Source: Blasia pusilla (lineage: Eukaryota). From it: DNA of 64,000 nucleotides. Both the position numbers and the translations under genes were made by a program. The stretch covers positions 30,628,001 to 30,692,000 of the forward strand of contig CM114271.1 of assembly GCA_050084515.1 (NCBI GenBank). The letters run 5' to 3'. This document shows, one piece after another, positions 14,318 to 64,000 of the stretch (its first letter is position 1; every line of letters begins with the position of its first letter). The notes beneath the pieces were generated by a model. It searched no databases. It had not been told where the DNA came from and worked only from the letters and a program-made list of their open reading frames with translations.

Positions 14318-14454
14318 TTGTGTGATCTCCATGTATATGTATGAGTTGATTTTTGTACATGTGTGGATCGACCTGTGTGTGGGGAAGATCGGTGTTGTGT
14401 GGTGTACATATGACCAGCGATGTATGTTGTGTAGCGATATGTATGCGCACGACA
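14317..14454 (+). repeat. Repeat block A1 (138 bp, ends GCACGACA)
   Basis: Near-identical to 14938-15075, with 5 differences counted. Confidence 0.92.
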
Positions 14455-14456
14455 GC

Positions 14457-14937
14457 TGTCACATCTGAGTAGCCGATAGGCCCAGATCTATCGTGGATAG
14501 GGCGTAGGAGCCAGCGGACTATCTTGAGTGTTAACTTTGTCCCACGGTGTCAGATGAGGTTGAGGATAGGTCCATTGTGTCAGGAACGTCGTTTCTGACA
14601 ACTTTCATGTTGAGGTCTTTTACAGCCGGGTGACTTGTTGACCAGGTCTCCCGCCCCTGGTAACCTGTGCGTGTAGGTTACCAAGGGTAGGGCTATTTTT
14701 AGGGGAAGAGCCTTTTGGCTCTTCCCAACCCTATATAAGAGAGGAAGATGGATTTCCTAAGCCATCTTTCTCATGTTGGGCCGTTGGAGCACCTCCCTTG
14801 TATGTGTGTGAGATAGGACTAGGGTGCTAGCGTCCGGATTCCTTGATAGCAGAGGGTGGACAAGGCTTGATATGCCGATGAAGATTGAAGAGTGGAGTTT
14901 TAGGCCGGGTGTGCCATTTTTACTACTCTTTGTTTTT
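14457..14937 (+). repeat. Repeat block B2
   Basis: Copy of 5441-5921. It lacks the terminal ACA and joins directly to A2. Confidence 0.92.
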
Positions 14938-15075
14938 GTTGTGTGATCTCCATGTATATGTATGAGCTGATTTTTGTACATGTGTGGATCGACCCGTGTG
15001 TGGGGAAGATCGGTGTTGTGTGGTGTAGATGTGACCAGCGATGTATGTTGTGTAGTGATATGTATGCGCACGACA
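14938..15075 (+). repeat. Repeat block A2
   Basis: Copy of 14317-14454. Its last 21 bp recur exactly at 15364-15384. Confidence 0.92.
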
Positions 15076-15388
15076 TGTAGTTCCAAACGGATTGCTCCCA
15101 AGATCCCAATGGGTTAGCAACAAATATAGAATCGGTGCCTAGGTTCTTTATTGTGTCCCAAAGTGTCGCGCATGCTAAACGTCATTTGGAGCCATACTTA
15201 GTTTAAGTCTAATTGGATTCTAAGATCCAATTCTGGCTGTAGAAGGCGTCCGATAAGTGGAATATAACTTGTATTGGACTATAGTTCCGAACGTCCTTTA
15301 GTTGGTGGTACGTGTTGTTGCGTCTCCCGGAGAGCTCCTTCGGTCGGAAATAGTTGGTCTATTGTGATATGTATGCGCACGACATATT

Positions 15389-25100: not shown

Positions 25101-27492
25101 GAGACATGAGGAAGGATTTTTCTGTGTACAGAGGCAAGATGGATGTCAAACGCCTCAATGAGTGGGTGACTAAGGGTGAGCACATTTTTTGGATCCACCA
25201 AGTTCCAAAAGCTAGGTGGGGAGTCGAGGCCTTTTTGAAGCTAGAGGCATATGCACTTACATGGTATCAAGAATTTTGTAAGGACCATTATACCATGAAG
25301 CCAGATTAGGGGGTGCTCACCTTGAAAATGAGGTGTTTGGCCCCACAGAATCAAGTGATCCAAGACAAGATTCGATTGTGACAAATGCAGTCAAGAAGCT
25401 TGATCATAAGCTTCATTACTCAGTTCCAAGAATCGTTGATGGTGATTGATGATATGTCACATGCCAACCAAGTCTTCAATTTATGGAGGCAATGCCTCCC
25501 AAGTGAAACAGAAAATGAGGGAGAAAAGTGCAACATCTACATTTAAGTTTGGGAAGTTGAAGGCAGCCATTGATAGGGCTACTCAATTGATGGCAAGCAA
25601 TTTGAGTCTCAAGAAGTGAAGAAGGTGGTCCCCATTATGAAGGCAAGGATACCATTCAAAAAACAAGAGGAAACCCAAAGAGAAAAGGCCACAAGTGGGG
25701 TTAGAACCCAAAAGGTTCAAACCTTAACCAATACAAAGTTCCAAGCATGGGGCCACCTTCAGTGAACCGCGCACTAGAGGGTGTTATGTGTGCAATGACC
25801 CGAGATATTTCAAGGAACAGTGACCGAATGTGAAAGGGGCAAACACGAAGAAGATCAGACCTGTGCCATAATGAGCACAAGAAATCATCAAGGGCAAGAA
25901 CGTTGACCAAGTAAGGGAGACAACCGCCTTGACGTTTAGCATGATTGATTGGGAGCCTTTAGAGAATGAGTTGAGTGAAGGTTATGAGCCTCCAAAGGAT
26001 TTGCATCAAGATGCTAGTGAATGCCAATTTCTAGTTGAGGTACTGATTGTAGGGAAATTTATGGTTATGTTTATTGACACAGGGGTGAGGTGACTTGCAC
26101 CTTTCCAGATCCAAAGGCGGTGGAGAGGTTGGGAGTGCCAATAATCAACATCGACCAAACCCAAGTTGTGATCTATAAGGATGGACACTCGAGCAATACC
26201 TCCTCACAAACATTGAACATAAAGATGGTAATTCCAAGAGACAAGACTAAGTTTAGCACCAAGGAAATTTTCTAGATATGATTTTATCACTTGGGTTTTT
26301 GGGTAGACATGCTATAGGTATTAAATCAGCCAAAGGCAAAGTAGAGGTTCTTCTTGCTGATGGAAATATCATGATGATTCTTGAGATTCAAAGAGCAAAT
26401 TTTCATCCTCAAATTTTGAGGGTTAATCAAGTAAAGCATGTTGCTCAATTGATTTTGGCCAAGCAAATTGTAAAGGATCTCAAGGGTGGGTTCCAATGTT
26501 GGGGAGTCACACTGAAATTTGTGGAGTCTGAATGTTGAACCACTTAAGAAGGAACTAAAAACAAACATTTTGCCTACAATGAGGAAAATCTTGGTAGGAT
26601 TCACGAATGTCTTAACGTGGGAATTTCCGAAAGGGTTGTCGCCTAGACAAAACGTGGATCATAAGATCAAACTCAAACCCAAACTATCCCCGATGGCAAG
26701 GAACACTTGGAGGATGACTCCCCAAGAAAGGAAACTCTTATATGAGCACATCAAGGTATTGGAGGAATGCGGGTTCATTTGCGCGAGCAAGTCGCTGTTT
26801 GGAGCCTCTTCCCTTCTCATCTCAAAGAAGGATGGGTCTATTCACTTGTGCGTGGATTATAGGGTATTTAAAAAAATGACCATCAAGGACAAGTATTCAT
26901 TGCCTTTGGCAAATGACTTGTTTGATGAAGTGGCAAGGTCCAAGAATTTTACCAAGATTGACGTAAAGGAAAGGGTATTACCAATTCTGAAGCATTGAAG
27001 AGGATGAACATAAGACCATGATGAGGACCAGATTAAGAACCTATGAGATCCTAGTGATGCTATTTAGACAAACTAGTGCCGCATCTTAGGATTTTATCTC
27101 TTAGGATCCATTAGATAGAGGGGTAATTTTGTCTCTTAGGATCCGTTAGATAGAGGGGTAATGGTGTTCTCCGATAATATCCTCATATATTCAGTGATTC
27201 AAGAGGAACACAAGGTTCTACTTAAAGAAGTCTTGGGATGTTTGAGGATGAACAATTTTTTTGCAAAACCTTCTAAATGTTGCTTCATAATCCAAGAAGT
27301 GGAATTATTGGGGCACACGTTCACAATGGAAGACAAACAATCCAATTGTGATATGCTAGAGGCTATCAAGTATTGTCAACACCAAAGAATTTGACCGAGA
27401 TATGATGATGTGTTGGATTTGTAACCTTCTATAGTCTATGAAGAGATATCCAAGATTATCCAAGGTTGCTAGACTAATCTACGACTTCACGC

Positions 27493-28239: not shown

Positions 28240-30700
28240 CACAACCCAATCTCGACGAAGATCAAGAGTGGAGTATAACCTAGGAGGAGGAAGTTCAAAG
28301 ATCTTAAGAACTTTCACAAACCCCAACATAAATGGCATTTTTCAAAACTTGAGAAGATGAGAACAAATTGAACCTTGTGATAATACTTTGCAAAACTTTG
28401 AACAATCCTCTATTTTCTCTCTTCATGTTTTATGATTCATGCATCAACGTGGGGCATGTTACTTTGGTTGATGGTTGAGGTGCTTAAATGTCTCCCCATA
28501 ACCAAGTCTTCGTCTCCAGTTATTTCCACAAGTACACGACACGCTTCCAAAAGTACACGGCAGCCTCGACCGGTTCCTCCTCAAAACCAGCCCCGAGTTT
28601 TACTTGTCCGGGTGCTAGTTATTATGACACGGTTACTTACTTTGTACGAACTCCTACATTGGAGACTTTAGATCCTATGAAGTCATGATACTAACACGAT
28701 ACACCTTAGTATCCAACTGGCATCCTATAATTTTCTGTACAAAAGGTGGTAATACTTGTGACTTCTAATACTTGTTAGTTTTGTTAACATCTTTTAGATT
28801 TCGAGTCATTTTTGCATTTTCATTGTTGGGTAGCTGGAGCTTCGACTCTACAACGTTTTAACGTGGAGAATGAAAGTACCTGGAAACTTTATCATAGGGG
28901 AAATGCAAATTACATAACATGCGTGTAACTTGGGAGTTGGGGGAGGCATGCTTGGATTCGAGACATGCTTTATACCTTGGAGAGAGTGGAAATTGACTCT
29001 AATTTAGTTTAGGAAGTGAGACACTAACTCTCGGGAATCAAGTGGTATAACAAGATCCTGAATAGGTTGTAGAAAAAAGAATTACTTCCATCGGAGGTTT
29101 TGGAGATTTCACCGGTTCGTCACGTGTGTTTCCTATTCTTATCTCTTACAATGGGAGTTAACGCACGCTCCGCTCCTTTGGAACGTCTGAATATATATAA
29201 ATTAGCCACACTTCTAGCTTCTACGGTCGTTCATTGATTGGTTTGACTTACAGGTTCATAGTTGTTTTGAAGTCAAACACAAAGTTTTTTTTTAGGGTGT
29301 TCATTTTATTTTATTTATAATTGATTGGAGCTTTCTAGTTTCTCCTCTCCATCTCTTTTGTCATGCCCACCGTGTTTGCCAAACGAGACGTGCTCTTCAC
29401 TCTCTTTTCATTTGATAGTGGTAACGGATAGTTGAAAACCTTATATTATCTAAAATCGATTTTGGTATGGGTGTCTACTCCATGACAGCACCCCAAAGTC
29501 AATGTTTCCATAGGACACATTGGTCAAGAGAGGTGCCAAGTTAGAGACCCTTTACGTTATTATTCTTGAGTTTTTCTCTTGCATTAGTCACAAAACTCCC
29601 TTTTTGTGTAATGAATTCAAAATATGTTCAATAATCCCTTTTTCCACCCCTACTAAATATGAGTAAATCAGGTTTTATAAATATTTTCTGCCACCTTTAA
29701 TTCGTGGCTTTCACTGTAAAGCCAGACCGAGTCATGAGATGTGCACCATGTCCGCCAAGATGAGCTGGCCCAATACACGTCCTCCAGTGGTACGACATTT
29801 TACCATAGATCGTTCTCCAAATTTAGAGTTGTATCAACGAACGATTGATCATTGTAAATCGTCTTGTAGATCATGTGTACCTGCACATGGAGCTACATAC
29901 AATGTCACGTACACTTGGGGATACTCAAACCAGGCTTACAGAAACTCGGCACGTGGATAGAACTTCCCGGGTCCCAGGAGCATTCGACGGGGGAGAAATG
30001 CACATATAAGAAGGTCACGGGATCGAAGTCACGGGGTCCGACGGATGGGTTTCTGAATCTTGAAAGTAAACGGTACGGATCACAGATTCTGACAGTACCC
30101 GTCCGACCCCCTATCCATGAAACAGCAAGGTATCTCTAACTCACACTGATGAGCTAAATAATTGTCGAGGACAGCTTTGTGGATCGGCACTCTATGAGCT
30201 TGAAATGGTTTTTTTGTTCGTGTATTGGTCATGAAAGAGAATCATGTTGTGGGTGGCTCAGATCCGTGACAAAAACTTGACGCTTCGCATTTACTCGGGT
30301 CTCGCAGATTCATGGTGAGGACCACTTCGAATCGCAATGAGTCTGTCCTCGCGGGTATGGCTGGCTGATTTCTCCCGTGATCAGCGGCTGAATTCTGATT
30401 TGGAGTTTCTTCGTGGATTTGCTTCGACAGTCAATTGCAAATCAGGGCATCCATCTTTCGAGAATCCACGAGGTGAGCTAGATTGTGAAAATCTGAAATT
30501 ACACGAAACCTCTATCGTCTCTCTCGCTCTGTGGTCTGCCACAAATCTTTCCATCGTGGTAAGCAGGAGGACACATCAGTGATCATATAAACTGTGTGAA
30601 GAAGGGGTTTGAGCCGACTTCGTGGTCGGCATACTACAACATCCCAGACACTACGCGGGAAAAAATAACCCGGAGAGTTGGCGACTGGTGGAAAGTGACG

Positions 30701-32383
30701 ATGGGTGAGGCTCCAAACGTAGTTCTGCCGCCGGAGCACAACGAGGCAAAGGCAGCAGCCGCCGTGGAGGTTGACGCAGCGGACAGTGGCCCGCATCAGG
30801 TTTCTTCTAAATATGGGAATTCGAAGGCAATGACGACTCGCAGTCCGAGACCTACAAATGTGGTACATGAAAAAGCCATCCCAAGTGAATCAGACGAAGA
30901 GTCGGACGGTGATGACAGCAGCTCTTGGACAGCTCCAGCGACGACGCCGAGAACCACAGGAAGGAAGCCGGAGGAGAGAAGCGACTACGACACTGATACA
31001 GATCTAGAGTCCCTATTCAACAACGCAGGGGCAGGCGCCTTTACGACCAAGCAGGGGATTCATGAAAGCGCATCCACGACTTCTACCCATGGCATGCCAA
31101 CGGGTCCGAACACTGTCATCGCCGACGACAAGACACAGAGCAAATTACCACGACGGAGGTGGAGGGATGCGAAGCGTGGCCGGGTAATAGACTACGACGA
31201 CAGTGATTATAGTTCTGGAGATTGTGAGGACGTGACAGCACAAGGAGCTTCCGGTGCAGTGGATTTTTGGTCTGGCTCAAGTCCCATGAAATCCAGAACT
31301 TCTCGACGTCGAGACCGCTTAGAGGAATGGAATGACCGGGGCTCTTCAAGTGATGAGAATGGTGGCAGCGATGACGACATGCGTACGGATTCCTATTTGG
31401 CGAAGTCAGCCGGGAAAATTCCCAGTTTTGCGTCTAGTAAGTCTTCGGTGAGCAGGAATCAATATTATTGGAGGGATGACACCGACATTCTGAGGTCCAA
31501 AGTTTCAGGTAATCACGGAGAAGTTGGCTCTCGTTCTCTGAGGTTGGATTCGGATTTCAGAAGTAAGCATCTTGAAGCAGATAACTTGCCAAAAGCACTA
31601 AATTTCAAGGAGCTTCAACCTCAACCTAGGAAGAGGAACCATGGGAGCAGTGCTTCCTTCTCAGGTGTTTCCGGTTCCCACTTGCGGGGTAAGACAGAGA
31701 AGATATTTCACTCGTTCCAGAAATTTGGGAGTGGATCGGACGAAGAGGAGAGCAAGACAATCGCCGTGAGGAATCTGGCGTCGACAGTGACGGAGGAGAC
31801 TCTCCGCGAGTTCTTCGGTGGGGTGGGAGCTGTGGTGAACGTACAGAGGCGGTTTGGATCTGCCAATTGTGCCTACGTAGAGTTCAAATCCACCGCTGCC
31901 GCGAAGAAGGCGGTGCAAAAGAATGGCACCAAGCTGCATGAGAGAGTTATCATTTGTGATCTTGCTCAAAAGAACTCTACATTCCGACCAAAAAGTGCAG
32001 AGCCACCTTCCGAACTTGCCCAGGAGCCCAGCGAGGCTCCCCTATCCGCTCTCGACTATCTTGCGACACTCATAAAGTTGGATGTACCTGGAGATTCGAA
32101 AGGCAGGGATCGAATCGAAATGGCGACACGTTCCATCAGATTGAAAGGTCCGGCGAGAGATTACGGAAGCACTCATGTTTCATCGGGCTCCTGGAACTGC
32201 AATATTGACCGACAGGTTCAGCCACTGGATGATTCACCCGGAGATTCACAACCTACGACGAGAAGAGGAAGTCTTCGAGGGCTCAGAAAGTTGTCGCGGT
32301 CTTGGGGCAAATTCCGACGGAAATGCACGGGCCGGTGGAACAGCTGTAAGAACTGGTGGCCATGGACCAAGCGGGCCCGATGA
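30701..32383 (+). CDS. Single-RRM RNA-binding protein with long acidic/Ser-rich N-terminus (nucleolin-like RRM); start uncertain
   Basis: Frame is open from 30596 with the first ATG at 30701. RRM at about 31757-31966: TIAVRNLASTVTEETLREFF...CAYVEFKSTAAAKKAVQKNGTKLHERVIICDLA. Confidence 0.75.
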   Translation: MGEAPNVVLPPEHNEAKAAAAVEVDAADSGPHQVSSKYGNSKAMTTRSPRPTNVVHEKAIPSESDEESDGDDSSSWTAPATTPRTTGRKPEERSDYDTDTDLESLFNNAGAGAFTTKQGIHESASTTSTHGMPTGPNTVIADDKTQSKLPRRRWRDAKRGRVIDYDDSDYSSGDCEDVTAQGASGAVDFWSGSSPMKSRTSRRRDRLEEWNDRGSSSDENGGSDDDMRTDSYLAKSAGKIPSFASSKSSVSRNQYYWRDDTDILRSKVSGNHGEVGSRSLRLDSDFRSKHLEADNLPKALNFKELQPQPRKRNHGSSASFSGVSGSHLRGKTEKIFHSFQKFGSGSDEEESKTIAVRNLASTVTEETLREFFGGVGAVVNVQRRFGSANCAYVEFKSTAAAKKAVQKNGTKLHERVIICDLAQKNSTFRPKSAEPPSELAQEPSEAPLSALDYLATLIKLDVPGDSKGRDRIEMATRSIRLKGPARDYGSTHVSSGSWNCNIDRQVQPLDDSPGDSQPTTRRGSLRGLRKLSRSWGKFRRKCTGRWNSCKNWWPWTKRAR

Positions 32384-38691: not shown

Positions 38692-40049
38692 ACCCAAACG
38701 TCCGAAAAACATAAAATGTGTTCATCCATGCGATCAGTAGGTCCATTCCATTCTATAGCAGCGTCGTGATTCAGTTGTCCCGCGATACCAGCTCCTCACA
38801 CGTAGGAGCAGGTAATTCCCACGCTCATATTTCTTTCCCATATTTAACCTCCACATGGTGCTATGTGCATATGAGAAAAGTAGAATATCACAAACGAAAA
38901 TTTTTCTTGCTAAACTTATGAAGTTATAGAAGTTGTAGAACTTTAGCTCTATGTGAAAGGGCATCTCGTGAGATTGTACTATTTAGACATTCCGGACTCT
39001 AATTCAAAGTATTATTGCTTTGTGGGATTGATTGATTAGTTTCCCCACTTTCTATTCATTATTTGTACTATTCATTTCATTTCTCTTTCGAACACATTCC
39101 CATACTTAGAAATTAGGTCTTCGTCCAGCTCCATTGGGAGTCCATTTTTGCCACTTTTTGGATACATGGTGACTTCTAGTTTATGAATACATTTCATGCG
39201 ACTCCATTGCGATTCCATTGAGGCTCCGCGCAACTTTGCATGTCGTCATTCATTTGCAAGTCTGGATCACGGTTCTGCTATCGCCACTAAGACAACTCAC
39301 ATTGAGCTCATAACTAACTTGCAAATAGCGGCTTCTTTAACTTTCACTTTGTGACTACTGAGGCTTCTATTGGTGTAGCAATGCGGCATGAGACTCGTTT
39401 TACAAGTCATTTATGAGTCTTGAATCTCACTACAAGTCAGTTGTAAGACTCGGAACTCAAACCTCGATGGTAAATTCCCCTTTCGTCTCCAAATTGTTCC
39501 ATTTTGGTTTTTCCTCCTAGTAACTTTTTATGACTCCTTGCCTCACTTTGCAACTAGATCATTGTCATAATGGAGGTAAGTTTTGAGATTATTTTGGCTA
39601 GAGAATTTCTTGGGGGAATGTTTTTGAAGGAACATCTAGATGATAGGAGGTCATAGTATTAAAGATTTTTTTCCCAAAATTATTCAATAAGAACTGAAGG
39701 AAGAAAAAAAAAAGTCTTCCCAATTTTCTCAAAAAGAAATTGGAAGAAGTTAAATCCCCCTTGAGAAAGTGTTTTATAGACCTAAAAATAAGGCCAAATA
39801 AAATGAAAAAGGAGTAGAAAACAATTACTTTGTGAGTTGTTTGCAAGTCCTTGGCTAGTCCAAAACCACTACTTTTCAAGTACAAAAGAAATTATGTGGA
39901 TTTTCTATTTCTTTATTTTTTTATTATTATGACTCAATTTTTGTGACTTGTTTGCAAGTACAGATACTCAAAATTACCAGTAAAAAACTTGCAAAAGTGC
40001 ATAAATGGTTTTATTCATTTACAATTGTTGGACTCACAAAAATCTTCTC

Positions 40050-42230
40050 TATGTGAAGAAGAAGCATGGGAATTTGAGATTGTATATTGATTATCGTACA
40101 TTGAACAATGTGACAGTGAGGAATAATTACCCTATTCTGAGGATCGATGCTCTCTTTGATAGAGTGGCAAGGGCTAAGTATTTTAGTAGGATTGCCTTGA
40201 AGTCAAGATATTACCAGATTCAGATATCAGTAGAAGTTGAATGGAGAAGATTGCGTGTAGGACAAGATATGTTTCTTTTGAGTCTGTAATGATGCCCTTT
40301 GGTTCGTGTAATGCACTTTTGACGTTAACATTTATCATGTTGATGAACTCCATAGTTTGTAACGAGATAGATGCATATGTTATCATCTTTAATGATGGCA
40401 TATTGATCTATTCAAAGTCATTGGAGGAGCATGCTTGACATTTTAGGATGGTTTTGTCAAAACTTAGGATGAACAAGTTGTACGCAAATGTAGGAAAGGA
40501 GAAAAATCGGGATGGGCAAAATCAAGTTCTTGGGTCACGTGGTTAGCGCAAAGGGAGTTAGTCTAGGTATGGATAAAGTGAAAGCAATTTCTGAGAGGAA
40601 ACCATGTTCAACACTGAAGGGGATGAGGAGGTTCATCAGTGCAGTTTAGTTTTATCGGCCTTATATGAGAAACTTTTCAGTAATAACGAGAGGTCTTATA
40701 GATTGGACCGAAAATTTTGCTAACACGACATGGACCAAAGAAGTGAATGAGGCATTCAACTCAGTCAAGAAGCTCTTATCGCACGAGCGAGTGCTAAAAC
40801 TTCTGGAGTCTGACAAACCGTTCGAGGTACACACAGATGTTAGTGATTATGTGATTGCACGAATGTTGGTGCAAGGAAGACTTATAGCGTACGAGAGCAA
40901 GAAGCTTTGCGATAACTAATGCGAATAGCTTACTCATGAGAAGGAGTGGTGCATTTCTTGAGAAAGTGGCGTCATTATTTGGGACTTCACCGGACTTGAG
41001 TATTCACCGATAATATATCACTCAAGTATTTTGAGGCACAGGATTGAGTGACACCAAAGCAAATACATGGCATGATATATGAACATTTATTAATATGAAG
41101 TTGGTCCAAAATCCAGGGAAGAATAATGTCATTCGTGATGCGTTGAGTTGCACGGATGAATACATGCCATCGACAATACAAGTGTTGAGAGCAATGTTCC
41201 CTTAGGAAATAGATCTGCAGAGAGGGATCTGTGAAGGATATATGAAGGATACCCAAGCATTAGAGTACCTAATGAAGTTGAGGCTGGGAGAGAAGTTGGC
41301 TTACATAAGTTTGAGACATGAATTACTAATGTTTAAGTAGAGCAGGATCTATGTTGGTGACGGTAAGCTGTGGACGAAGGTGTTGATAGAGTGTCATGAT
41401 GGATCCTTGTTAGGACATAAGAAGAGACTTGACTAGGAGAGAAGTCTTGACTAAGAGGTTCTTCTAGCCCAACGTGAAGGAGTATGTTGCTCAGTTTGTG
41501 AAGACCAATGTGACATGCCAAGCAAATAGAGTTTCTTATGAGAAGAAATAAGGCTTACTTCACCCATTGAAGGACCCTTGTAAGGCATAAGAATGGATTT
41601 TATTACGAGTCTTCCAAAGTACGAGGAACACAATGCTTTACTTGTGATAGTTGACCGGTTCAATATGTTGTGGAGGTTTGTCTTGACGATGGCTTCTATG
41701 ACGGCCTGTGCAACTTCCCAACTCATCTTGGATAGCTAGTGGCGAGCACATGGGTTACCAAGGAGTATTTTTTAGATAGAGATCCAAAGTTTATCAGTGT
41801 CTTTTGGAAGCATCTATTTAGAAGATTGAGGATGAAGCTGAGTTTTAGTATCGTATTTCATCCTCAAATAGAGGGGAAAACTGAGAGAGTAAACTCGATC
41901 CTGAATCAATACTTAAGGAATTATGTAAGTGCAAACCAACGACATTGGGTAAGGTGGCTAAGTATGGTTGAGTATAGTTACAACTCAATCATACATTTTG
42001 CAACTAGAGAATCTCTGTTTCTTTTGGCGTATGGATGTGTGCCATTAGGGCCTCTTGAACAGGCCCTTTCAAAGGGAACTACATCGACACAGATCCGATA
42101 AGTAACAACAAAAGGTTTGTTAGCGGAGATGCAAGAACGTGAGAAGCGAACATAAGAGAGTCTATAAAAGGCTTGGCTAAGGTACGTTAAGAAGGCTAAT
42201 GAGAGTTGACGACAAGTAAGTTTCCAAGTA
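40050..42230 (+). mobile_element. Decayed Ty3/Gypsy pol (RT-RH-INT)
   Basis: KKKHGNLRLYIDYRTLN...NYPILRIDALFD, KPFEVHTDVSDY, DRDPKFISVFW...FHPQIEGKTERVN. Confidence 0.88.
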
Positions 42231-48246: not shown

Positions 48247-50066
48247 TTAGTGCCAGCTAGCGGTTCTTCTTGACCTTACGCGGTCGGTCCTTTCTGCAAC
48301 CTTCATTTTGCTCATTCTCTTCTGTACCTGTTCCAATTGAATCTGCCTAAGCTTGTCCGAGACCTCGCTGATATTGGGTCGGTTAGTCGGCTCCGAGCTA
48401 CAGCACTTGAGTGCGAGCTCTACCACCTCCCGGATCACATCCTTCAGGCATTCTTTACAGGGAAGTTTCGACGAATCGCTGCAGGGGCACCAGATGTAGG
48501 AGTCGACCGTCTCCTCCCAAAGCCCGAGCACCGACATCTCACTGACAAGATCTGGAAGAAATGTCTTCGATCGGCTCGGTTCCCCTGCTCTCAAGCCCGT
48601 CACGAGCTCCATGAGCACCACTCCAAAGCTGTATACATCCGCTGTATCTGTCAACTTGCCAGTTCTCTCGTAGTGAGGATCCGTATACCCGCGAGATCCT
48701 TTCACCTTGGTATGGCAGTAGCTCCGCTGTTTCTCGTGAGACACGGCTGCAGCAATACCGAAATCTGCAAGCTTGGCTCTCCGGCTCATGTCCAGAAGAA
48801 TGTTGGTGGATTTCACATCGCGGTGGTAGATGGCAATTTTGCTGTTGTAGTGTAGCGCCGTGATGGCGTCGGCGACATCGATAGCAATAGTCAATCGCTC
48901 GTCCCACGCCAATCGTTCCGAGAATTTTCCATGTAAGTGCTGTTCCAAGTTCCCGTTCGGAACGTACTCGTAGACGAGAAGGGGATCTTGTTCATAGCAC
49001 GAGAAACCGATCAGCTTCACCAAGTGGTCGGATTTTGGGAGACTGCGCTGGAGAAATACTTCGTACAAGATTTCCTCAAGTGAGTGTCCCTTCACTGCTT
49101 TGTACCTCTTCACAGCCACTCGCTGGTCATCGAAGAGGAAGCTTTGAAATACTTGTGCCACCTTCCCGCTTCCCACCAGTTTGAGCTCCGAGAAGAAATT
49201 TGTAGCGCTTCTCAGCTCCCTGTATGAGAACCAACTGCATTGAATAGTTGCCGCCCTTCGCCAGTACCACTGTGCAAACCGAACAGCTGTAGGACCACAC
49301 GAAAAAATCTTAGACTGTATTCCGTTCTGAGACTCCGGTTACAGTCGTGACAACCGTTTCTGCAACATGACTTCCGAGCTTAACTATGGAGCGGGCAACT
49401 TCGATAGCTGGTAAATTTTCTGATCTTAGTTGACCTCAATCCGGATGGTGTCCACATGAACAAAGGAAGATGACTGTGCAACCATACTCGAGAACCTAAT
49501 AGCTCTGAACAGCGAGAAAGTTGGATCTACAGTCCTAATGGATAATGAATGATTCCTCTTCTCCGCAAAGGCTACAGCGACACAAGACTATACTGGATAT
49601 AATTGTTTAGTCGAAGCTGACGAACCGTGTACTCATTCCCTGGAATAGCTAAATGAAGCGATCACTTTCGAATGATCAAGTAGACATTACCTTTCTTCTT
49701 CTCCAACAGTGTTGAAAATCTGACGAAGGGAGGCGCGCAAGTCAAGATAGAAGACTGACCTCCTTCCAGATTGAAGTATTCGAAGAAGAACTGAATGAAG
49801 TCACTCCAAGTTGCCACCTGAAGGGGGCACGCAACCGCATATTTGATATGCGTCGACGCCAAAAGGAGAGTGTGGTCAGCTGACAGTCCCTGCTGTATGG
49901 CCCAATGACTAAAAAGATTGAGCCAGAGTTCGGCCTTGCTCGGGCTCTCATCGCCGGAGAACGGAGGCACGATGATGTCACCAGCCTTGGCGCGTGGAAT
50001 GAGTGTGTCCAAGCACATAAAATTGAACTCGCTCCGAAATTCCTCGCTCAGTGCATAATGTACCAT
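48247..50066 (-). CDS. RLK/Pelle-family Ser/Thr kinase with gag-like N-terminal exon (about 471 aa; exons 50066-49691 and 49286-48247)
   Basis: Kinase motifs FSYRELRSAT, GSGKVAQV, VAVK, LLVYEYVPNG, HRDVKSTN, DFG, DVYSFGVVLMEL. Donor AAG|GTAATG and acceptor CTACAG|CT are both phase 1 and join in frame. Further upstream exons cannot be excluded. Confidence 0.8.
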
Positions 50067-54424: not shown

Positions 54425-54742
54425 CATACCTTATGTAGGGCCGTAGTGTCTAGGTAGAGATGCGGTTTCATACATAGGGTTGAGGGTTATGCAATTGAGG
54501 GTGACTTTTCCAATAGGGCCCGCTCTTAGGTTGGAGGATATAGTGTGGAGTGCACTCAAAAAACAGTTAGTTCTTTGAGTTGAGCCTGTTGCGTTGGGAG
54601 TTAACCTTGGTAGTGAGAAGAGCTCTTGGCTATGATGGTTCCCGCAAGCTTTGACCTGGATTCTCCCATCGTGGAGTGGGTTTGGCTTGATTGTATGTGA
54701 TTCTATATGTGTTTCATGACTGTAGGTCTTTCACAGATTTCA
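54425..54742 (+). repeat. Block B1 of element 2 (lacks the first about 50 bp)
   Basis: Direct repeat of 63693-64000. The right boundary is inferred from the putative PBS at 54743-54754. Confidence 0.85.
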
Positions 54743-56229
54743 CTCACAGAACTAGAGTAGATCGATGGTAGCTTCGATTGTGGATCAGTAGGATCTGGTT
54801 AGGGTTGATTGTGTACTCAGCCGTGGATGTTTGTGGCTTGTGGCCTATGTTGGAGGTGGGAATCTGGTGCGTGATTGGTTGAGAAAGAAGCGCCTTGCTG
54901 AGAGCTTTGCAACGCGCTTTAGATCGCCAGATTTCGTTAAGGGAGTTGGAAGTTATCAAGGATTGAAGATACTGGTTCGTGTTCGACGGTTTCCTGATGT
55001 AGAGAGCTTGGAGTGCGGAAGCTCTGTTGAAGTTCATCCAGATCGGGTGACAGGTTCCTGTTGCTACTTGTATTGGGATCTTATGTGAAGCTATCTGCTT
55101 GAGTGTGTAGAGTGTTGCGGATTTCTGCAGGCATGAATCTGGGCGGAAGCGCTGTCGGATTTGCAATTCTGGAGATGTATGGACAACAAGTTTGTCTGAT
55201 TTTTATCTTGGAGTACAGAGCTTGGTTGTAGCTGATTTTTTGTAAAGAGATAGCTATGGTGGTCAATTGAATTTTGGTCGAAAAAAAATCAATTTTGGTT
55301 GAGGATTTGTGGAGTAATTGGTGATTGGAATTTCGCGGACTAGCTCAAGGTCTGGCTATGGTGGACAGCAGATCGGAGGGGCTGGTTGGTTGGTGATTTG
55401 TCTGTTGTTGGAGACGCCTATCCCATTGGGGGCGCCCTGGTTGGGCCTCTCTCCATAGCAAAGCATGGCGATAGGGGCATGTCTCAAGCATTTCTCGAGG
55501 CTTCGAGGCAACTCGTGGTAGCTCGGAGCGAGTGGGCGTGAGAGGCGGAGTAAGGAGCAAGGAGCAAGGAGCAAGCTTGCTTGCTTGGGCGTGAGGCAGT
55601 TTTTGCAAGATTTGTGATTTGAGTGTTGCATAACTGGTCATCCATCTTTGGGCTATTATGCCTGGAAGACGCTTAACTGCTGAGTTCTTAACTATGCCAA
55701 TGTACACACTGGTGTAGCTCATTTGGTGTTGTTCGGAGATGTGTTAGGCGCTTTATGCATCTCAGGTTTTTGGTTGATGGATCTCTAGCGCATAGTAGGG
55801 TGTAGCCTCTCCATGCAAGTGATATTTTCAGATGCTACGAGTCCGACTAGCACGTCATCGACCGCGGCGGAGTAGCTATTGCGTTAGAATTGTGTGGTGG
55901 GTTCTGTGGATTTAGGGGGCGCCACGTTTGGTGGATTTTGTTACCTTGATTTCCATTTGCGATTGGAGGGTTGTCGTTGGACTTCCTCTGTTTGGATCCC
56001 CTCCATCGTTGCTTCTTGCTTGGGGCCCATTGTTAGGGATGTTGATTTCCATAGTAGTGTTACTCTTGTGTGCTACCGGTAGTGAGACTGGAGTGATGAC
56101 CAGTAGACCGTGGGAGGCTTCTTGTGGTGATGAAAGGTTAGGTTGCCTACACCCATAGCTATTAGAGCTAGAATAGTACAGCGACATCAACGTCACTTGG
56201 TTACTTAGTGGTGGTAATTTGATGGTGGT

Positions 56230-57582
56230 GTGGCATCGGTGTTGGTCATCACGGAGCTGTCTGGTGGTCTGGTTGGGGACCGTGGTGCGGACAGTGGTGG
56301 TTTTACACGGAGTGAATTGAGGTATCGGCTACCTTTTCCACTTCCGACAGTTGATGAAGAGGAGGACGAGGGTGTTCCAAACACCAAGTCTTCTACGTTG
56401 TTATCGAGTGTTGCAGCTCCATTGATCTGGGACATGGACGGGATATATAGGGCCATGAAGGGCCCAGGACGATACTCGGATGCAGTGGGCACCATTGAGT
56501 TGGAGGACTTCATGCACGAGTTTGATACGTGGTGTGATATGCAGATGTTGCGGAACGCCACGTTGTTTACACCCTTCTTGGCTTGGAAGGGGTTGTTTCA
56601 GCAGTTGGAGGGGCCACCCATGGATGATTACCATGAGTTTAGGAAGGACCATGTTGCTGAGATTGAGGCGTGGAGAAAATATTGGTCTCCAGGTTATGTG
56701 TCTATCACCCATGGTGGTATTGGTAGTAGTGCTACTACTATGCTAGCCAGCCCGACGTTGAGTGGTACGAGTATGAGCCGGAGTGGGGGTACCAATGGAG
56801 GAACCCATGGAGGTACCAGTGGGGGTACTAGTGCCCCACCATCGTTCAGCCCGATTGCAAAGTTCTTCAACAGGTTGAAGAAGAACTATCAGGGAGTGAA
56901 GACACAGAAGTTGAGGAGTCTTCAGGAATTTGAGCGAAAGACTGGTGAGAGTCTTCGTGAGTCATACACTCGTATGCGACGCTTGATTTCACTTACCCAG
57001 GGTGTGACTGAGGCTCAATAAGTCCACTTTTGGTATGGGATCTTGGATAGAGAGTTGCGCCGCAAGGTACGTGATGCTACTCTTATGAGTGATGATTCAC
57101 CCACATTGACCCATGTGTTTGCTCTATCTGAGAAGATTGAGCTTAACATGGTGGAGGAGAGAGTGGTGACATCCGCATTCAATAGGGATACAACTACTAC
57201 TTCTCGTGTTCAGCAGTCCACCTCACAATCTCATAGTAGTGATGGTGGTAGTAGTAGTGGGAGTCGTGGGGGGTACACACGACCTCAGTCAGGTCCTAGA
57301 GGGTCACCTGCGTAGAGACCATTGCCTTCATTTGCTGCCCCGCAGCAAGGACAGTCATGTTGGACATGTGGAGGTGATCATGTTAGGAGGTTTTGTCCCC
57401 AAGAGGATGGGACACGGACTTTGGAGGATGGGCCTCAGTCGGCCACAACTCAGTGTGATCATTGCGGGAGACCAGGTCATCCTCGAGAGCGTTGCTTTGA
57501 TCTTCATCCAGAGTTGAGATCAGGCTGCGGCCGTGGTGGAGTAGCTCCGCGAGGCCGAGGTGGTAGGGATGGTAGAGGTTGA
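56230..57582 (+). pseudogene. gag of element 2
   Basis: GTIELEDFMHEFDTWC, ERKTGESLRESYTRMRRL, CWTCGGDHVRRFC, CDHCGRPGHPRERC. Confidence 0.85.
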
Positions 57583-58241
57583 CCAGTGGTTGGAGAGCCT
57601 ACGGTGGCTACCCCTACCACTACAACAGAGTTAGCTATGGTCGTCGAGATTGAGCTTGATTGGAGCAGAGTTGGCTACTATGGTCGGTATCCAAAGAAAG
57701 AGCGTGTTCGGGAGCAAGGGCTTCCACCTCTTATGGAGGGGATGATCTCTCTTATATGGCGAGTGCAGCACAGGTTGAGGCATCAACTGCAGTTATGAGA
57801 GGAGCCACTCGAGCGTCAGAGCCACGTGGTGCTACTGTGGAGTTGGATCCACAAAGGGGTGAGGCTGGGAGGCAGGCTAGGCTTCCCGAATCATTCTTGT
57901 TGTTTTAGGTGCTTAGGACTCCATCCATGGTTCCTATGCAGCCTATTGAGCCGACAGTGGGGACAAAGGCATCTACATCGCGTGTAGTAGATACGGATGC
58001 AGCATCTAGTGCAGTATTGCGGATGGCAACTTCAGTGTTGGGATCCCCATTGTTTTCGGCCACGGAGCTGATGGCTTTAGGAGTTGATGAGGTGGATGAG
58101 GGTGTTGCGGTGGAGCGACCCTTTTTGTCAGGTGTTGCATTGAGTACCAGTGCTACTTGGCAAGCAACAGCGGCAAAGATGGATGCATTACCAGCTTGAC
58201 GAGCCATTGATCGTGAGAGGCTTACACCTGGTGTATGTAAG

Positions 58242-58691
58242 TTGGACAACCAGAGTGGGATATTCCGATTGGTGAGTCCTATAGGTCAGGTGTATAGACC
58301 AGATAGAGTCTTGTTAGACTCTGGCGCCCAACCTTTGATGTTGGGAAAGGCGGCATGTATTGGTTTGGGTATTCGGAGGTCAGAGCTTGAGCCTTGCCCA
58401 TTCCAGATTCAAACATCACTTGGAGGAGCCAAGGATAGGTCTCAATTCATGACACGGGAGAAGTTGTCTCTACAGTTGAGACCAAATCATGCGACTGATA
58501 GCTCTCGGTTGGGAGTACCTGTAGTGGTCACATCAGCCGAGTCGTATGATGTACTACTTGGAGGAGCAGTATTGTATCCGATGGGTTTTCAGATGGACTA
58601 CTGGACTGAGACAGCGTCTTATAGACCTGGTTGGCAGTCCGGGGATGGACGTATGAGCCAGGTTCCTGTGAGATTTATTTATGGGGCTTGA
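58242..58691 (+). pseudogene. Aspartic protease of element 2
   Basis: VLLDSGAQP and YDVLLG. Confidence 0.9.
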
Positions 58692-59045
58692 CCAAGAGGG
58701 TCTTCCCCAACGGTGTTAGCATCTGTGGCTGGTTTTAGTGGAATAGTCACTTGGCCAGGAGACTTTTTGGAGGGTAATGTTTCTGCTATGGATTCTCCTG
58801 TGCATGAGGAGGTAAAGGAGGTCCCTAGTTTTGCAGTAGTGGCATCCTCATCGTTGGATGTGCCACTTTGGAGTTCAGGCGGTGCACTACGGCAAGAGGC
58901 TGATCGCCTAGTGTAGGAGGCTTGGTGTGAGGCTGTTATACCTCACGAGGAAGAGGAGGCCCCACGGCGGACTCCTACTTCTGGTCCAGTTGGGTTATCC
59001 CCTTTGGATACTACACCCATTGTATGGCAGTATCCGCCAAAGGGC

Positions 59046-59990
59046 ATTTTTGTGCTAGATCTCTTTGGTAGGATTAGCACTAGTTTGGCTGCAGTGTTGC
59101 AAACCGGTATTCCTGTGCAGAGATACGTGTATGTGGAGCGAGATGAGACGGCCCAAAGAGTCTCATCCCGACATATGGGTCAGTTGATGCGGAGATATCC
59201 TCAGTTGTTGCCGCCATCAACTATTCGTGGGTACCAGCGTGCTTTGCCGTCACACATTGCATTGTTGGAGGCGCAAGATCTTGAGAGGGTTGGTCCTGTG
59301 GATTTGGTGATTGCTGGATGGCCATGTCAGGGTCATACACGTGCTGGTCGTGGTGAGGGATTACACGACCCTAGGTCTCGATTGTTTTGGGAGATGTTAC
59401 GGGTGTTACGACATCTTCGGGTTCATCAGGCTCGTGCTCCAACTTACATTCTGGAGAATGTTCCATTGTTGGGTGACACTCAGACCCAGATGATGGCGAG
59501 TGTTCATGAGGTGCGGTCTTGGATTGTACCAGCGGTGTTGTTGGATGCAGCGCGAGTTGGCTCGCGTTCACATCGTCCACGCTTGTGGTGGAGAAACTTG
59601 TTGCCTAGGGAGGTTCTACGTCGAGCATATGATGCAGTGCAGCGGGATTCTTGCCTTACAGTGGATAGTATCTTGGATACTGGGCGACTTTCTCAGGTGG
59701 TGAGGGTTATTGATCCGTCACCCATGGTAGTGGTGAACCGTGTGGGCCAGCCTAGGATGGCACTATGTAGATTTCTGAGTTTTCCCTCGTCACATGCCTA
59801 CAGGGAAGGTGGTTCCGGGCTTGTATGGGATTCTCATGTGCGACAGTTGGTGGAGCTTAACGCTGATGAGAGAGAGCGTGCGATGGGATTTGCTATTGGT
59901 GTGATAGCGGTTGCTTCCATTTCTGAGGCTTCAGGACGTCATGTGTTGGGTCAAGCCATGGACCTGAATTTTTTGACTTGGATTTTGAGT
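59046..59990 (+). CDS. DNMT3-like C5 cytosine methyltransferase domain of element 2 (no stop within the domain; surrounding polyprotein disrupted)
   Basis: VLDLFGRISTS, YVERD, DLVIAGWPCQG, YILENV, LLDAARVGSRSHRPRLWWRNL, ERERAMGF, GRHVLGQAM. Same frame as PR and RT. Confidence 0.92.
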
Positions 59991-60245
59991 CTTGGTATGG
60001 CCGAGTAGCGTCGACTTCGGACTATGTCTATGGGTCTTCCACCCCTTGTGATGAGCTCGATGGCTACCGGGACGGTAGAGACATCGGCAAGGGGCGAGGA
60101 GAATAGTATTTTGCATCCTTGGAGTAAATGGGATGTAATGGCTGGGAATGTGGAGTTGGTTGCTCATGTTGGTTGAGAAGTTATTTGCTTAGATGATGGT
60201 GTAGCTAAGGGTGTACCATCTTATGAGGGGGTTATCTAGTAGCCA

Positions 60246-61730
60246 ATGGCGTCATCCTCTCCCTCTAGTGTGCTAGTGGAGGAGATTTGGGAGCCATTAC
60301 TTGGGCCCAAGCTTAGGGGAGGTGAGAAACGACGCTTGACACAATTCCTACGTGCTTATAGGAGTTGTTTTGCCTTATGCATGAAGGAGTTGGGTTCTTT
60401 GGTTGGACCCGGTATACGGATTGATTTGGCTAGTGATTCGCCAATCTTCCGTCGTCCCTACCGATATAGTGATATGGAGAGGGACCTGATTCAGAGTAGG
60501 ACGTTGGACCCTTTGGAGGCTGGATTAGTGGAGTTGTCGCATGGAGAGTATGCATCAGCCACTGTCATGCCTACTAAAAAGGATGTGCATGGCAACTACA
60601 CAAATAGGCGGATGTGTGGAGATTACGGTCCTATCAATCGGCAGACCAAGGCCGATAGGTATGTCATGCCTACACCTGAGGAGATCTTTGATGTGGTGGG
60701 ACAGGAAAATATTTTTAGTACTTTGAATCTTCGGGCAGGATACCATCAGTTGCCAATTCGAGAGAGAGACAAGGCCAAGACAACATTTTGGGGTGTCAAC
60801 TCTCATGGCAAGGATTGTTTGTACTAGTGGAAATTCTTACCCTTTGGGTTGAAGAATGCACCTGCCGAGTTTCAGAGAGTGATGGACAAGATCCTAGCAG
60901 GGTTGGATTTTGTTCGGTGTTACATTGATGATATCTTGTGTACAATAACAGGGTGGAGGAGCATTAGATACATTTGTAGATTGTGTTTGAGCGGTTGAAA
61001 ACTCATGGTCTACGTTTGCATCCAGGAAAGTGTAAGCTCTTCCATGAGGATGTTGAGTACTTGGGTCATGTGATCTATCCAGGTGGTTTGGGAGTTCAGC
61101 AAGCAAAGGTGGAGGCTATTGCACTTATTCTTGGTCCGGTAGATGTGAGTAGAGTTCGGGCATTCATGGGATCAGCGAACTACTATCAGAGGTATGTGAA
61201 GGGATTTAGTGCTATGGTAAACCCTTTGAACCAATTGCTGAAATCAGATCAAGAGTGGCACTGGGGAGATGATTAGGAGAGAGCTTTTGTGGAGTTCAAG
61301 GCCCAGTTGGTAACGGCGCCTATCTTGAGGAGACCTATCAGAGGGCGCCAATTTCAGTTACACACTGATTGGACTAGGTTGGGACTTGGAGCGGTGTTGA
61401 CACAACATGATGATGAGCACATGGAGTTTGTGGTGGCCTATGCAAGTCGTTCGAATAATGCAGCGGAGTCGCGCTATAGTTCATATGAGGGAGAGTGCTT
61501 GGCAGTAGTGTGGGTTGTGGCACACTTTAGATGTTACTTGTTTGGCACAAAGTTTACCCTTATTACTCATCACCAGCCGCTCAAGTGGTTGATGGAGTTT
61601 GACAAGCTTACAAGGAAGCTTGCACGGTGAGCTCTTATCTTACAAGAGTATGACTTCCAGTTGGTACATAGACCTGGAGTTGCCAACCTTGATGCTGATG
61701 GGTTGAGTAGGAACCCATGTACTAGCCAAG
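60246..61730 (+). pseudogene. RT and RNase H of element 2
   Basis: RRMCGDY, LRAGYHQ, LPFGLKNAP, YIDD, HTDWTRLGLGAVL, YEGECLAVVW. Confidence 0.93.
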
Positions 61731-62109
61731 AGGATGCAACTGGGGCTAGATGGCATGGCGAGGTTGATGAAGAGATGGTGCCAGGTTGGCATGCATCCGC
61801 CTTTTTATGTTGGTTAGGGGTGGACTCTAGTATGGAGGAAAAAATGACATCTTACTCTAGTCAGAGGGTAGATGGCCAGCCTTCAGATCCTAAGGTTGGA
61901 GATGGTGGTACGGATCAGCATGATATTCATGATGATCCGTTGGTGTTGGAGTTCCTACGGACCAGTAGGATGCCAGGCATAGTGAGTGCCAAGGAGCGAG
62001 ACCGTGTTCTTCAACGTGCTAAGAGGTATCGATTGGAGGGAACACATATTCTCCGTGTGTGGGAGGATGGTAGAGTACGAGTAGTGCCACATTTGGCTTA
62101 GAGAGAGCG

Positions 62110-63361
62110 CATTGTGGGACATGCCCATGAGGAGTTGGGACATTTTGGGGTAAAGCGTATGTTTAGCTTACTCCTTGGTCAGTATTGGTGGCGTGGCATG
62201 TATACTCAGGTACAGCAGTTGGTGTCATATTGTATGGTTTGTGACTGGGTGAGGGCATCATTCAATGCCCCTACACCATAGTTACACCCCTTGCCTATCA
62301 TGGGGTTGGGTTACTATTGGAGTGTGGACTTTGCGGAACCTTTACCGTTGACTGTACGACATCATCAATATGTGTTGGTGATGGTGGAGCACTTCTCCAA
62401 GTGGATTGAGTTGGTGACATTACTTGACAAGGCAAGTGAGGGAAAGGCATATGCGTTTCTTGATAGAGTGCTTAGTCATTTTTGTGCACTAGCTGAAGTG
62501 CTGACCGACCAGGGTACAGAGTTTCAGGGTGAGTTTCAGGTCTTGTGTGACAAGGCGTTGATTGATCATCGGACCACGTCTCGAGATCATCCAGAGGTGG
62601 ATGGTTTGGCTGAGCGTGTGGTTTAGACGATGAAGAGGGCATTGCGCAAGTATGGCCTCTGAAGGGCATCTTGGCGATAGGATATTCAGTTGCCATGGTT
62701 AGCCATGGGGTATAGGTTCAGTCGCCAAGCATCCTTGGCTTCCTTCTCACCTTATTTTCTGTTATACAGCCGAGATCCAGACTTGCCAGCATAAATTTGT
62801 CAGGAGTCTAGTGAGGTGGTGAACCTTGATGACCCAAAGATGTGGATGAGAGTGTGTTCTCAGCGGGCAGAGCTCTTTCGGAGAGTTATGCCAATAGCCT
62901 TTGAGAATCTTGCCATTGCTCAACACAGGGATACGTTGCGGTATGCAACCATTCGGGGTGGAGGTTATTGACCATCAATTTGTAGGTTCCATGTGGGGGA
63001 CTATGTCTATTTGCAGCAGATTGCACCGACAACGTTGGATGTGACGGCAGGCCGCACTATTTTACGAGTGCGCGAGGTGTTAGCTTCTGGAGTTGTCATG
63101 TTGGAGGGTCGTGATGGAGTTGTTTGGAAGGACCATGTGCATAATTGTGCGCCATGTTATCTTCCAAATGTGGATGGTACTGTTGACCCAAGCTTAGCCA
63201 TGATACGTGCTAGCTTGAGGTGCATGTTGTGTGGGTCTGCTGGTAACGCAGCCTGTATGTTGGTGTGTGATTGGTGTTCTAGGGATTGGCACATGATGTG
63301 TTTGACTCCACGTATGGATGTTGTTCCTACTGGAAGGTGGGTTTGTCCTCGATGTACTTAG
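62110..63361 (+). pseudogene. Integrase and C-terminal PHD finger of element 2
   Basis: HEELGH...CMVC, WSVDFAEP, LTDQG, LAERVV. PHD at 63221-63361: CMLC...CDWCSRDWHMMC...WVCPRC. Confidence 0.92.
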
Positions 63362-63535
63362 AAGAGGTAGATGACTTGATCTTTGCATGATATGGATTAC
63401 AGATGTGCGACGAACGATGGGGCAATCTAGTACCCGGCCTTCTGATTCGTGCACCCACGAAGGTGTATAGCATGTAGTAGATGTATAGGGCTACTTGGGA
63501 GTTAGAGGGACCTAACCGCCAGTTATGGGGGCGAG

Positions 63536-63640
63536 TTGTGGTACAGTTGTGTTTGTGTATGCTCTCGTCTATGTTATGTATGTATGTGAGTATGGTATGT
63601 CAGCGATGTATGTTGTATGACGATGTGGATTCACACGACA
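63536..63640 (+). repeat. Block A of element 2
   Basis: Follows the PPT-like GGGGGCGAG and ends CAGCGATGTATGTTGTATGACGATGTGGATTCACACGACA, then AC-TGTCA. Confidence 0.75.
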
Positions 63641-63642
63641 AC

Positions 63643-64000
63643 TGTCATGACCATACATATTATGTCGTAGAGTATAGTGTGCTAGTAGAGGCCATACCTT
63701 ATGTAGAGCGGTAGTGTTTAGGTAGAGATGCAGTTTCATACATAGGGTTGGGGGTTACTCACTTGAGGGTGACTTTTTCAGTAGGGCCCGCTCTTAGGTT
63801 AGAGGATATAGTGTGGAGTGCACTCAAAGAACAGTTAGTTCTTTGAGTTGAGCCTGTTGCGTTGGGAGTTAACCTTGATAGTGAGTAGAGCTCTTGGCTA
63901 TGGTGGTTTCCGCAAGCTTCGACCTGGATTCTCCCATCGTGGAGTGGGTTTGGCTCGATTGTATGTGATTCTATGCGTGTTTTATGACAGTATGTCTTTC
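63643..64000 (+). repeat. Block B2 of element 2 (truncated by the window end)
   Basis: Starts TGTCA and matches 54425-54732. Confidence 0.85.

Follow-up and report, generated by a model that had tools for sequence, protein, structure and literature searches.

We analyzed 64,000 nucleotides (nt) of Blasia pusilla DNA (contig CM114271.1; hereafter the window), in which positions 59046-59990 had been predicted to encode a DNA methyltransferase carried by a retrotransposon. Our data indicate that this stretch is very probably a DNMT3-like C5 cytosine methyltransferase (DNMT) domain of an old, inactivated copy of a Gypsy-type element, referred to here as E2, which runs from about position 54425 to the window end. 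As part of a dead copy, the stretch itself is without function. For comparison we used a second element, E1 (5441-15384), which carries the same domain. The layout of the family is Gag (with two CCHC knuckles), protease (PR) and DNMT in the first open reading frame (ORF1), followed by a stop and by reverse transcriptase (RT), RNase H, integrase (INT) and a PHD finger in ORF2. The features of the two elements are given below.

Two elements and their methyltransferase domain

54425-54732, + strand: E2 repeat A1, 5'-truncated and lacking the first 50 nt of A2; 92.5% identical to 63693-64000
56434-57560, + strand: E2 gag, frame 1, with 2 in-frame stops; 65% identical to Marchantia proteins P0122 and P0121 (tblastn)
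about 57358-57495, + strand: two CCHC knuckles of E2 gag, seen in the translation of ORF 57316-57582
58200-58691, + strand: E2 aspartic protease, with DSG at 58317-58325 and a conserved LLDSGAQPLMLGKAAC block in the alignment with E1; ends in TGA
59046-59990, + strand: E2 DNMT3-like C5 cytosine methyltransferase domain (PF00145, sequence match to DNMT3A, AlphaFold2 and Foldseek), stop-free, with damaging substitutions
60237-60245, + strand: remnant of an E2 ORF1/ORF2 leaky stop, TAG TAG CCA, 82 codons past the DNMT and in the frame of the RT start
60291-61276, + strand: E2 reverse transcriptase (tblastn with P0128 and P0135; weak RVT_1 match on 60980-61276; YIDD in the alignment)
61277-61700, + strand: E2 RNase H (PF17917, E 2.1e-29; PF17919, E 4e-28)
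62069-62968, + strand: E2 integrase, zinc-binding part and DDE core (PF00665, E 4.7e-11 on 62282-62626), with several in-frame stops
63221-63355, + strand: E2 C-terminal PHD finger (PF00628, E 1.3e-07, residues 84-128 of ORF 62972-63361)
63534-63640, + strand: E2 repeat B1, after a G-rich tract (63525-63533); ends in ...CACGACA, with a layout as in E1 B1
63643-64000, + strand: E2 repeat A2, continuing past the window end
5441-15384, + strand: comparison element E1, consisting of A1 (5441-5921), coding region, B1 (14317-14454), A2 (14457-14937) and B2 (14938-15075)
9926-10870, + strand: E1 DNMT domain, with FGGISTG intact and an in-frame TGA at 10037; PCQG is replaced by PCEG and HRPR by HLPR
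11136-11144, + strand: leaky-stop context of E1 (TAG CAA CCA), in frame with the start of RT

The own-frame translation of 59046-59990 comprises 315 codons with zero stops and lies within a stop-to-stop ORF of 363 amino acids (58917-60008). The Pfam family DNA_methylase (PF00145) matched the E2 domain with an E-value of 6.1e-10 and a score of 39.5 bits (cut-off 22). Among solved structures compared by sequence with HMMER, DNMT3A was the best match (E 6.1e-12), and DNMT3B (6e-10) and DNMT3C were also among the best; tobacco DRM (8.7e-5), M.HaeIII (1.9e-4) and the tRNA enzyme DNMT2 (0.06) matched more weakly, and DNMT1 was not among the matches at E <= 1. An AlphaFold2 model built from 33 aligned sequences had a predicted local distance difference test (pLDDT) score of 72.9 and a predicted template modeling (pTM) score of 0.78, with a pLDDT below 50 in residues 201-257, the counterpart of the target-recognition part. 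All matches listed by Foldseek for this model were DNMT3A, DNMT3B or DNMT3C entries, with a top E-value of 1.9e-15 and template modeling (TM) scores of 0.61-0.75. The domain thus finds its best match in both sequence and fold in animal DNMT3A and DNMT3B, from which it differs in its low identity (approximately 20-23%), in having neither PWWP nor ADD, and in its place inside a retroelement polyprotein.

The motif order of the E2 domain (I, IV, VI, VIII, IX, X) is unrearranged and is the same as that of DNMT3A in the HMMER alignment; here we take PCQ to be motif IV, ENV motif VI and the RxR-like HRPR motif VIII. The original prediction held that PCQG, ENV and HRPR are preserved in a domain free of stops and that motif I is altered, and the sequence agrees on each point, with PCQG at 59322-59333, ENV at 59454-59462, HRPR at 59571-59582 and an altered motif I, FGRISTS, at 59064-59084. 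Relatives and E1 read FGGISTG at motif I, so E2 does not retain an intact S-adenosylmethionine-binding motif of the FxGxG-like type. The first of the changed glycines is a glycine in 64 of 65 relatives, and both glycine losses are single G-to-A transitions (AGG vs GGG in E1, and AGT vs GGA in E1). Furthermore, 40 columns, including PCQ and ENV, are at least 95% conserved among 76 relatives; E2 deviates at eight of these and E1 at one. Because motif I is altered, the E2 DNMT, a family member by descent, is probably inactive as an enzyme.

E1 is a complete A-coding-B-A-B element in which B1 and A2 are separated by a 2-nt GC spacer. Its two repeat pairs are 95.2% (A1/A2) and 96.4% (B1/B2) identical, its ends are TG...CA, and TATT is duplicated at both flanks (5437-5440 and 15385-15388). 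The element is nested in a Helitron, whose Helitron-like coding region is split into 4943-5401 and 15368-16429 (Helitron_like_N, E 1.8e-55 for the right part). Between E1 B2 and the TATT of the right flank, the interval 15076-15384 holds 287 nt of unrelated sequence and then the final 22 nt of B for a third time; a small insertion close to the E1 end that produced a long target duplication may account for this interval. For E2, the repeats visible in the window are A1, B1 and part of A2, with B2 lying past the window end. A1 and A2 of E2 differ by 23 mismatches, 17 of which are transitions. A2 starts with TGTCATG at 63643, and no sequence matching this start was seen to the left of 54425. A long leader separates A1 from gag, and the RT contains in-frame stops as well as a frame change at about 60935.

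E1 and E2 are colinear from gag to the PHD finger over 2228 codon pairs, and the DNMT lies between PR and RT in both, as had been noted earlier from the sequence. Amino-acid identity between the two elements is 56% for gag, the part previously described as diverged, 62% for DNMT, 71% for RT and 78% for INT. Their coding DNA is 67-73% identical, and their repeats and leaders have no similarity detectable by BLASTN. Judged by these sequence differences, E1 and E2 are distinct families. The further claim that the B repeats differ holds for the B1 visible in E2, which shares with E1 B only the ...CACGACA end, the 2-nt spacer and the TGTCA that opens A; it does not extend to E2 B2, which is outside the window. 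A third DNMT copy was not found in the 64-kb window. Other RT traces in the window are decayed and Gypsy-like (26516-27328 and 40014-40901), with no DNMT in either.

Selection between the families and decay of the copies

The ratio of nonsynonymous to synonymous substitution rates (dN/dS) was calculated between E1 and E2 by the Nei-Gojobori method (NG86) for 11 regions, of which PR, RNase H and the RNase H-INT linker gave no computable dS. We found a dN/dS of 0.175 for DNMT (bootstrap 0.10-0.25), compared to 0.139 for RT (bootstrap 0.08-0.20), 0.109 for INT, 0.187 for gag and 0.070 for the C-terminal region with the PHD finger, while the linker between DNMT and RT, which served as an internal control, gave 0.70. 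These ratios are rough since dS is saturated (1.3-2.1), and noise from changes after insertion is present in both E1 and E2, with decay inflating all ratios; the contrast between DNMT and the linker is nonetheless clear. Identity by codon position follows the same order, with second positions and four-fold sites being 82 and 39% identical in DNMT, 83 and 41% in RT, and 43 and 25% in the linker, respectively. The comparison of DNMT with RT and INT had been set beforehand, with a DNMT ratio near 1 as the outcome that would speak against selection, and DNMT is not near 1. Since the DNMT ratio came out near that of RT, selection at the level of the lineage is supported: the codon comparison indicates that DNMT was under purifying selection, at a level near that of RT, in the lineages that separate the two elements.

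These data bear on whether the DNMT is merely carried along as a neutral passenger, acquired in a single chance capture and of no benefit to the element. The enzyme borne by a Gypsy element in an earlier study, for which no activity was shown (PMC5890265), would fit a passenger. However, a passenger would not be expected to combine a dN/dS near that of RT and far under that of the linker with second positions so much more conserved than four-fold sites, or to keep PCQ, ENV and the other conserved columns described above. In addition, 1.84 billion cluster representatives were searched exhaustively, of which 3352 matched at E <= 1e-3, 630 at E <= 1e-10 and 172, counted as clusters at 50% identity, at E <= 1e-30, and the domain is also kept in an intact 9.2-kb relative (L001, described below). 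We consider a neutral passenger highly unlikely. The low dN/dS, the wide distribution of relatives and the 172 clusters instead favor the earlier view of an old, selected and probably abundant lineage.

Both copies in the window are inactivated. Along a homology-guided frame path, the 2275 codons of E2 are interrupted by 23 in-frame stops, and its frame changes at least twice. The 2325 codons of E1 include 13 in-frame stops, of which one lies inside DNMT (10037), and its frame changes five times. Opposite 21 aligned E2 stops, the E1 codon is CAG in seven cases and CAA, CGA and TGG in one case each. The observed/expected ratio of CpG is 0.58 in E2 and 0.75 in both E1 and the rest of the window. 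From this pattern we infer that C-to-T and G-to-A changes are enriched in the decay, which is what one would expect of an element that is methylated and silenced.

We asked how the open frame of the E2 DNMT is to be read within this decay. One explanation is that the frame was kept by selection after the element had decayed, as a domesticated host methyltransferase or regulator. Consistent with this, the run of 363 codons is the longest stop-free run in E2 (the next longest has 195), and the chance that all 23 stops miss the prespecified 315-codon block is low (P 0.032). However, a stop-free run of at least 363 codons anywhere in E2 occurred in 39% of simulations with 23 stops in 2275 codons, and stop-prone codons are no fewer in the domain (31/315) than in the rest of E2 (139/1960). 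The stops that bound the ORF align with sense codons in E1, the ORF has no methionine ahead of motif I (its first is residue 86), and the eight changed positions among the 40 near-invariant ones include a motif-I glycine. Domestication is therefore very unlikely. Because the P value is only weak, no methionine precedes motif I and the enzyme is damaged, the open frame is better read as luck, that is, as a chance survivor of decay. The absence of stops goes only weakly beyond chance, whereas the presence of the domain itself is certainly beyond chance.

A TGA at the end of the protease is aligned in E1 (9579-9581) and E2 (58689-58691). We considered a programmed stop at this position and rejected it, as 25 of 45 relatives spanning the site have arginine opposite the shared TGA; a parallel CGA-to-TGA change at a CpG looks like the simpler reading.

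The sense strands of E1 and E2 (5441-15384 and 54425-64000) are skewed in base composition, with 31-33% G, 18-20% C, more T than A, and a GC skew of 0.18-0.32 per 2-kb bin. The many minus-strand frames of 80-150 codons inside both elements are probably by-products of this skew. Elsewhere, the window contains a host-like exon of a receptor-like kinase (Pelle/RLK) on the minus strand (48247-49338; best solved match FERONIA, E 2.6e-42), a host-like gene on the plus strand with a 606-codon open frame and an RRM domain (30563-32383), and a long (GA)n/(TC)n microsatellite (535-821) that appears as poly-ER or poly-LS in the ORF list. The window gave 0 Rfam matches at the gathering threshold and 0 tRNAs by ARAGORN.

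Relatives, domain position and the end of ORF1

A word-indexed protein search with the E2 DNMT returned 199 proteins near query length at E <= 1e-3, plus 43 longer proteins. The named sources are Marchantia polymorpha, M. paleacea, Calypogeia fissa, Riccia sorocarpa and four Sphagnum species, with a Closterium relative found when the E1 DNMT frame was used as the query; M. polymorpha accounts for 14 of the longer proteins and for further fragments. The E2 DNMT is 72-77% identical to copies of other genera and only 62% identical to E1. Its best relative in the protein search is 76% identical, while the best relative of the E1 DNMT is 68% identical by BLASTP and 71% over the columns of the tree alignment. 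These identities suggest that the protein set does not include the host genome itself, and the relatives, together with the receptor-like kinase described above, point to a streptophyte and probably a bryophyte as the host.

We built a quick maximum-likelihood tree of the DNMT domain with 78 rows, after removing 118 of 194 proteins whose coverage of the domain was below 85%. In this tree, all copies from liverworts and Sphagnum group with E1 and E2 in one 27-row clade, with a support of 99 in the Shimodaira-Hasegawa-like approximate likelihood ratio test (SH-aLRT). E2 lies inside a 23-row subclade (SH-aLRT 97) with Marchantia, Calypogeia and Sphagnum copies, and E1 lies outside it. A sister relationship of E1 and E2 was not rejected by an approximately unbiased (AU) test (p 0.204), and because of this result we do not claim that the split between E1 and E2 is older than the divergence of mosses and liverworts. 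The divergence and distribution of the copies support calling the lineage old, without a firm branching order.

The position of the domain varies in more distant relatives. Among 24 long relatives with 33-39% identity, annotated with Pfam and, where Pfam was silent on the DNMT, with the position of the exhaustive-search hit, 21 have the order RT, RNase H, DNMT, INT, 2 have the DNMT before RT, and 1 could not be assigned. One of these distant relatives (P0279) has a G-patch domain between DNMT and integrase. Two positions would be compatible with the DNMTs of E1 and E2 stemming from two separate captures of a host gene, but the two elements carry the domain at the same place between alignable linkers and share the 27-row clade with the liverwort and Sphagnum copies, which makes separate captures extremely unlikely for this pair. 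Within the wider PHD-bearing Gypsy group, by comparison, the DNMT has moved or has been captured more than once, because it sits at two places among the relatives.

A scan of bacterial and archaeal genomes gave five loci, four of which are unrelated Streptomyces methylase genes matching over approximately 55-100 residues. The fifth, L001 (CADCWO010000201.1, 9285 nt), is filed under an uncultured cyanobacterial metagenome-assembled genome and is a complete relative of the element, with 46% identity in the DNMT and the same Gypsy order of PR, RT, RNase H and DDE integrase as E1 and E2. Its ends overlap by 127 nt, as expected from repeats collapsed by the assembler. L001 is a eukaryotic Gypsy-DNMT retrotransposon and was probably mis-binned. 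A protein labeled 'Candidatus Obscuribacterales' (P0041) belongs to the same group as L001.

L001 contains a single in-frame TAG between ORF1, with PR and DNMT, and ORF2, which comprises the next 1047 codons in the same frame and encodes RT, RNase H, INT and PHD. The stop and the codons after it (3489-3497, TAG CAA TCA) are an exact match to UAG_CAR_YYA, the consensus context in which tobamoviruses and some further plant viruses read through a stop efficiently (PMC3542737). E1 has an exact match as well, and the TAG TAG CCA of E2 is one C-to-T change away from TAG CAG CCA. The motif TAGCARYYA matches the 64-kb window twice, once at the E1 site, compared to 3.5 matches expected by chance. In the group of relatives with approximately 45% identity, 18 of 18 environmental proteins longer than 1200 amino acids end 91-174 amino acids past the domain, and 4 of 11 M. 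polymorpha gene models end 81-83 amino acids past it. These data suggest that the DNMT ends ORF1 (Gag-PR-DNMT) and that polymerase and integrase would be made by read-through of the UAG. The likeness to tobamovirus-type (type I) read-through lies in the CAR_YYA context after the ORF1 stop; the difference is that the motif is known from plant RNA viruses (PMC3542737), and its use by a retrotransposon is our reading of the context.

Known DNMT-bearing elements and a possible role in land plants

The closest described system is KnitGypsy-Dnmt3 of the charophyte Klebsormidium nitens (de Mendoza et al. 2018), whose report describes a Dnmt3-like domain in a Gypsy coding region, DIRS-like A-coding-B-A-B repeats, a ratio of nonsynonymous to synonymous rates (Ka/Ks) below 0.2, and copies heavily methylated in the CHG and CHH contexts (PMC5890265). 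E1 and E2 match this description on every feature compared, namely the Gypsy set of domains, a coding region that also holds an unrearranged Dnmt3-like domain, the A-coding-B-A-B repeats (whole in E1), purifying selection on the DNMT (Ka/Ks < 0.2 there, 0.175 here) and a streptophyte host. They differ in that the closest relatives of E1 and E2 come from liverworts and Sphagnum, not from a charophyte, and in that the passages of PMC5890265 at hand mention neither a PHD finger ('PHD', 0 occurrences) nor a leaky-stop context. SymbioDIRS-Dnmt3 of Symbiodinium likewise carries a Dnmt3-like domain in an A-coding-B-A-B retrotransposon, with two domain orders coexisting, and two of its DNMT domains are reported to methylate CG de novo in yeast (PMC5890265). 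As described there, however, it uses a tyrosine recombinase, whereas E1 and E2 have a DDE integrase and TG...CA ends, and E1 has a 4-bp flanking duplication.

Elements of this kind have thus already been published, and it is their presence in land plants that may be new. The species table of the 2018 survey lists Physcomitrella and Selaginella and does not include Marchantia (PMC5890265). An opinion paper states that DNMT-bearing elements are absent from land plants (PMC6338049), and for streptophytes, the 2018 report is still the only one to which a 2025 paper refers (PMC12344493). Full-text searches, which did not cover subscription journals, found no publication on DNMT-bearing Gypsy elements in bryophytes.

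In live copies, the DNMT would form the C-terminal part of ORF1 and would be made together with Gag and the protease, while RT, RNase H, integrase and PHD would be made only upon read-through of the UAG in its CAR_YYA context. The protease would then free the DNMT, which could methylate cytosines in the newly made DNA of the element itself or at its insertion site, along the lines of the 'self-methylation' idea raised in PMC5890265. Alternatively, the enzyme might act on RNA, such as the element's genomic RNA, or serve mainly as a nucleic-acid binding module. RNA methylation has been raised for a DNMT borne by a long interspersed nuclear element, and the Gypsy enzyme showed no activity on DNA (PMC5890265); in addition, making the DNMT with Gag would presumably place it beside packaged RNA. 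Against this, the nearest enzymes in sequence and fold are the DNA enzymes DNMT3A, DNMT3B and DNMT3C, with the tRNA enzyme DNMT2 far behind, and the DNA-type PCQ, ENV and RxR-like HRPR motifs are conserved together with the target-recognition region. We consider an RNA target or a mere binding role unlikely, and DNA methylation is the activity that we would propose.

On a broader scale, we tentatively suggest a scenario that is possible, if rather doubtful as a whole. A clade of Gypsy-DNMT elements with DIRS-like repeats and a PHD finger behind the integrase would have persisted in land plants, namely liverworts, Sphagnum and the host of the window, as at least two old subfamilies. In this clade the DNMT would have left the site between RNase H and integrase, where most distant relatives have it, for the end of the Gag-PR frame, ahead of a tobamovirus-type leaky UAG, so that the DNMT would be produced in Gag-like amounts and the polymerase by read-through. 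Besides the saturated dS and post-insertion noise given above, several points weigh against our main reading of the family and its expression. Enzymatic activity has been shown for no member of the family, and in yeast, de novo methylation was not obtained with the KnitGypsy-Dnmt3 domain, a result that its authors judge inconclusive (PMC5890265). The likeness to the K. nitens elements is one of published description. Read-through is drawn from the stop context in three DNA sequences only, one of them mutated, and some Marchantia models (P0125 and P0128) span the boundary, maybe as copies that lack the stop or through predicted introns.

Retrotransposons that carry the very enzyme usually used to silence them are rare, and so far they have been described from dinoflagellates and one charophyte alga (PMC5890265). 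Annotated proteomes of liverworts and Sphagnum contain relatives of E1 and E2 that have gone unremarked. If the proposed scenario is true, Gag-like amounts of the DNMT would point to a structural or particle-associated role in marking the element's new DNA. Since Marchantia is genetically tractable, it could show how a transposon benefits from carrying a DNMT, which the yeast assays did not settle for Gypsy elements.

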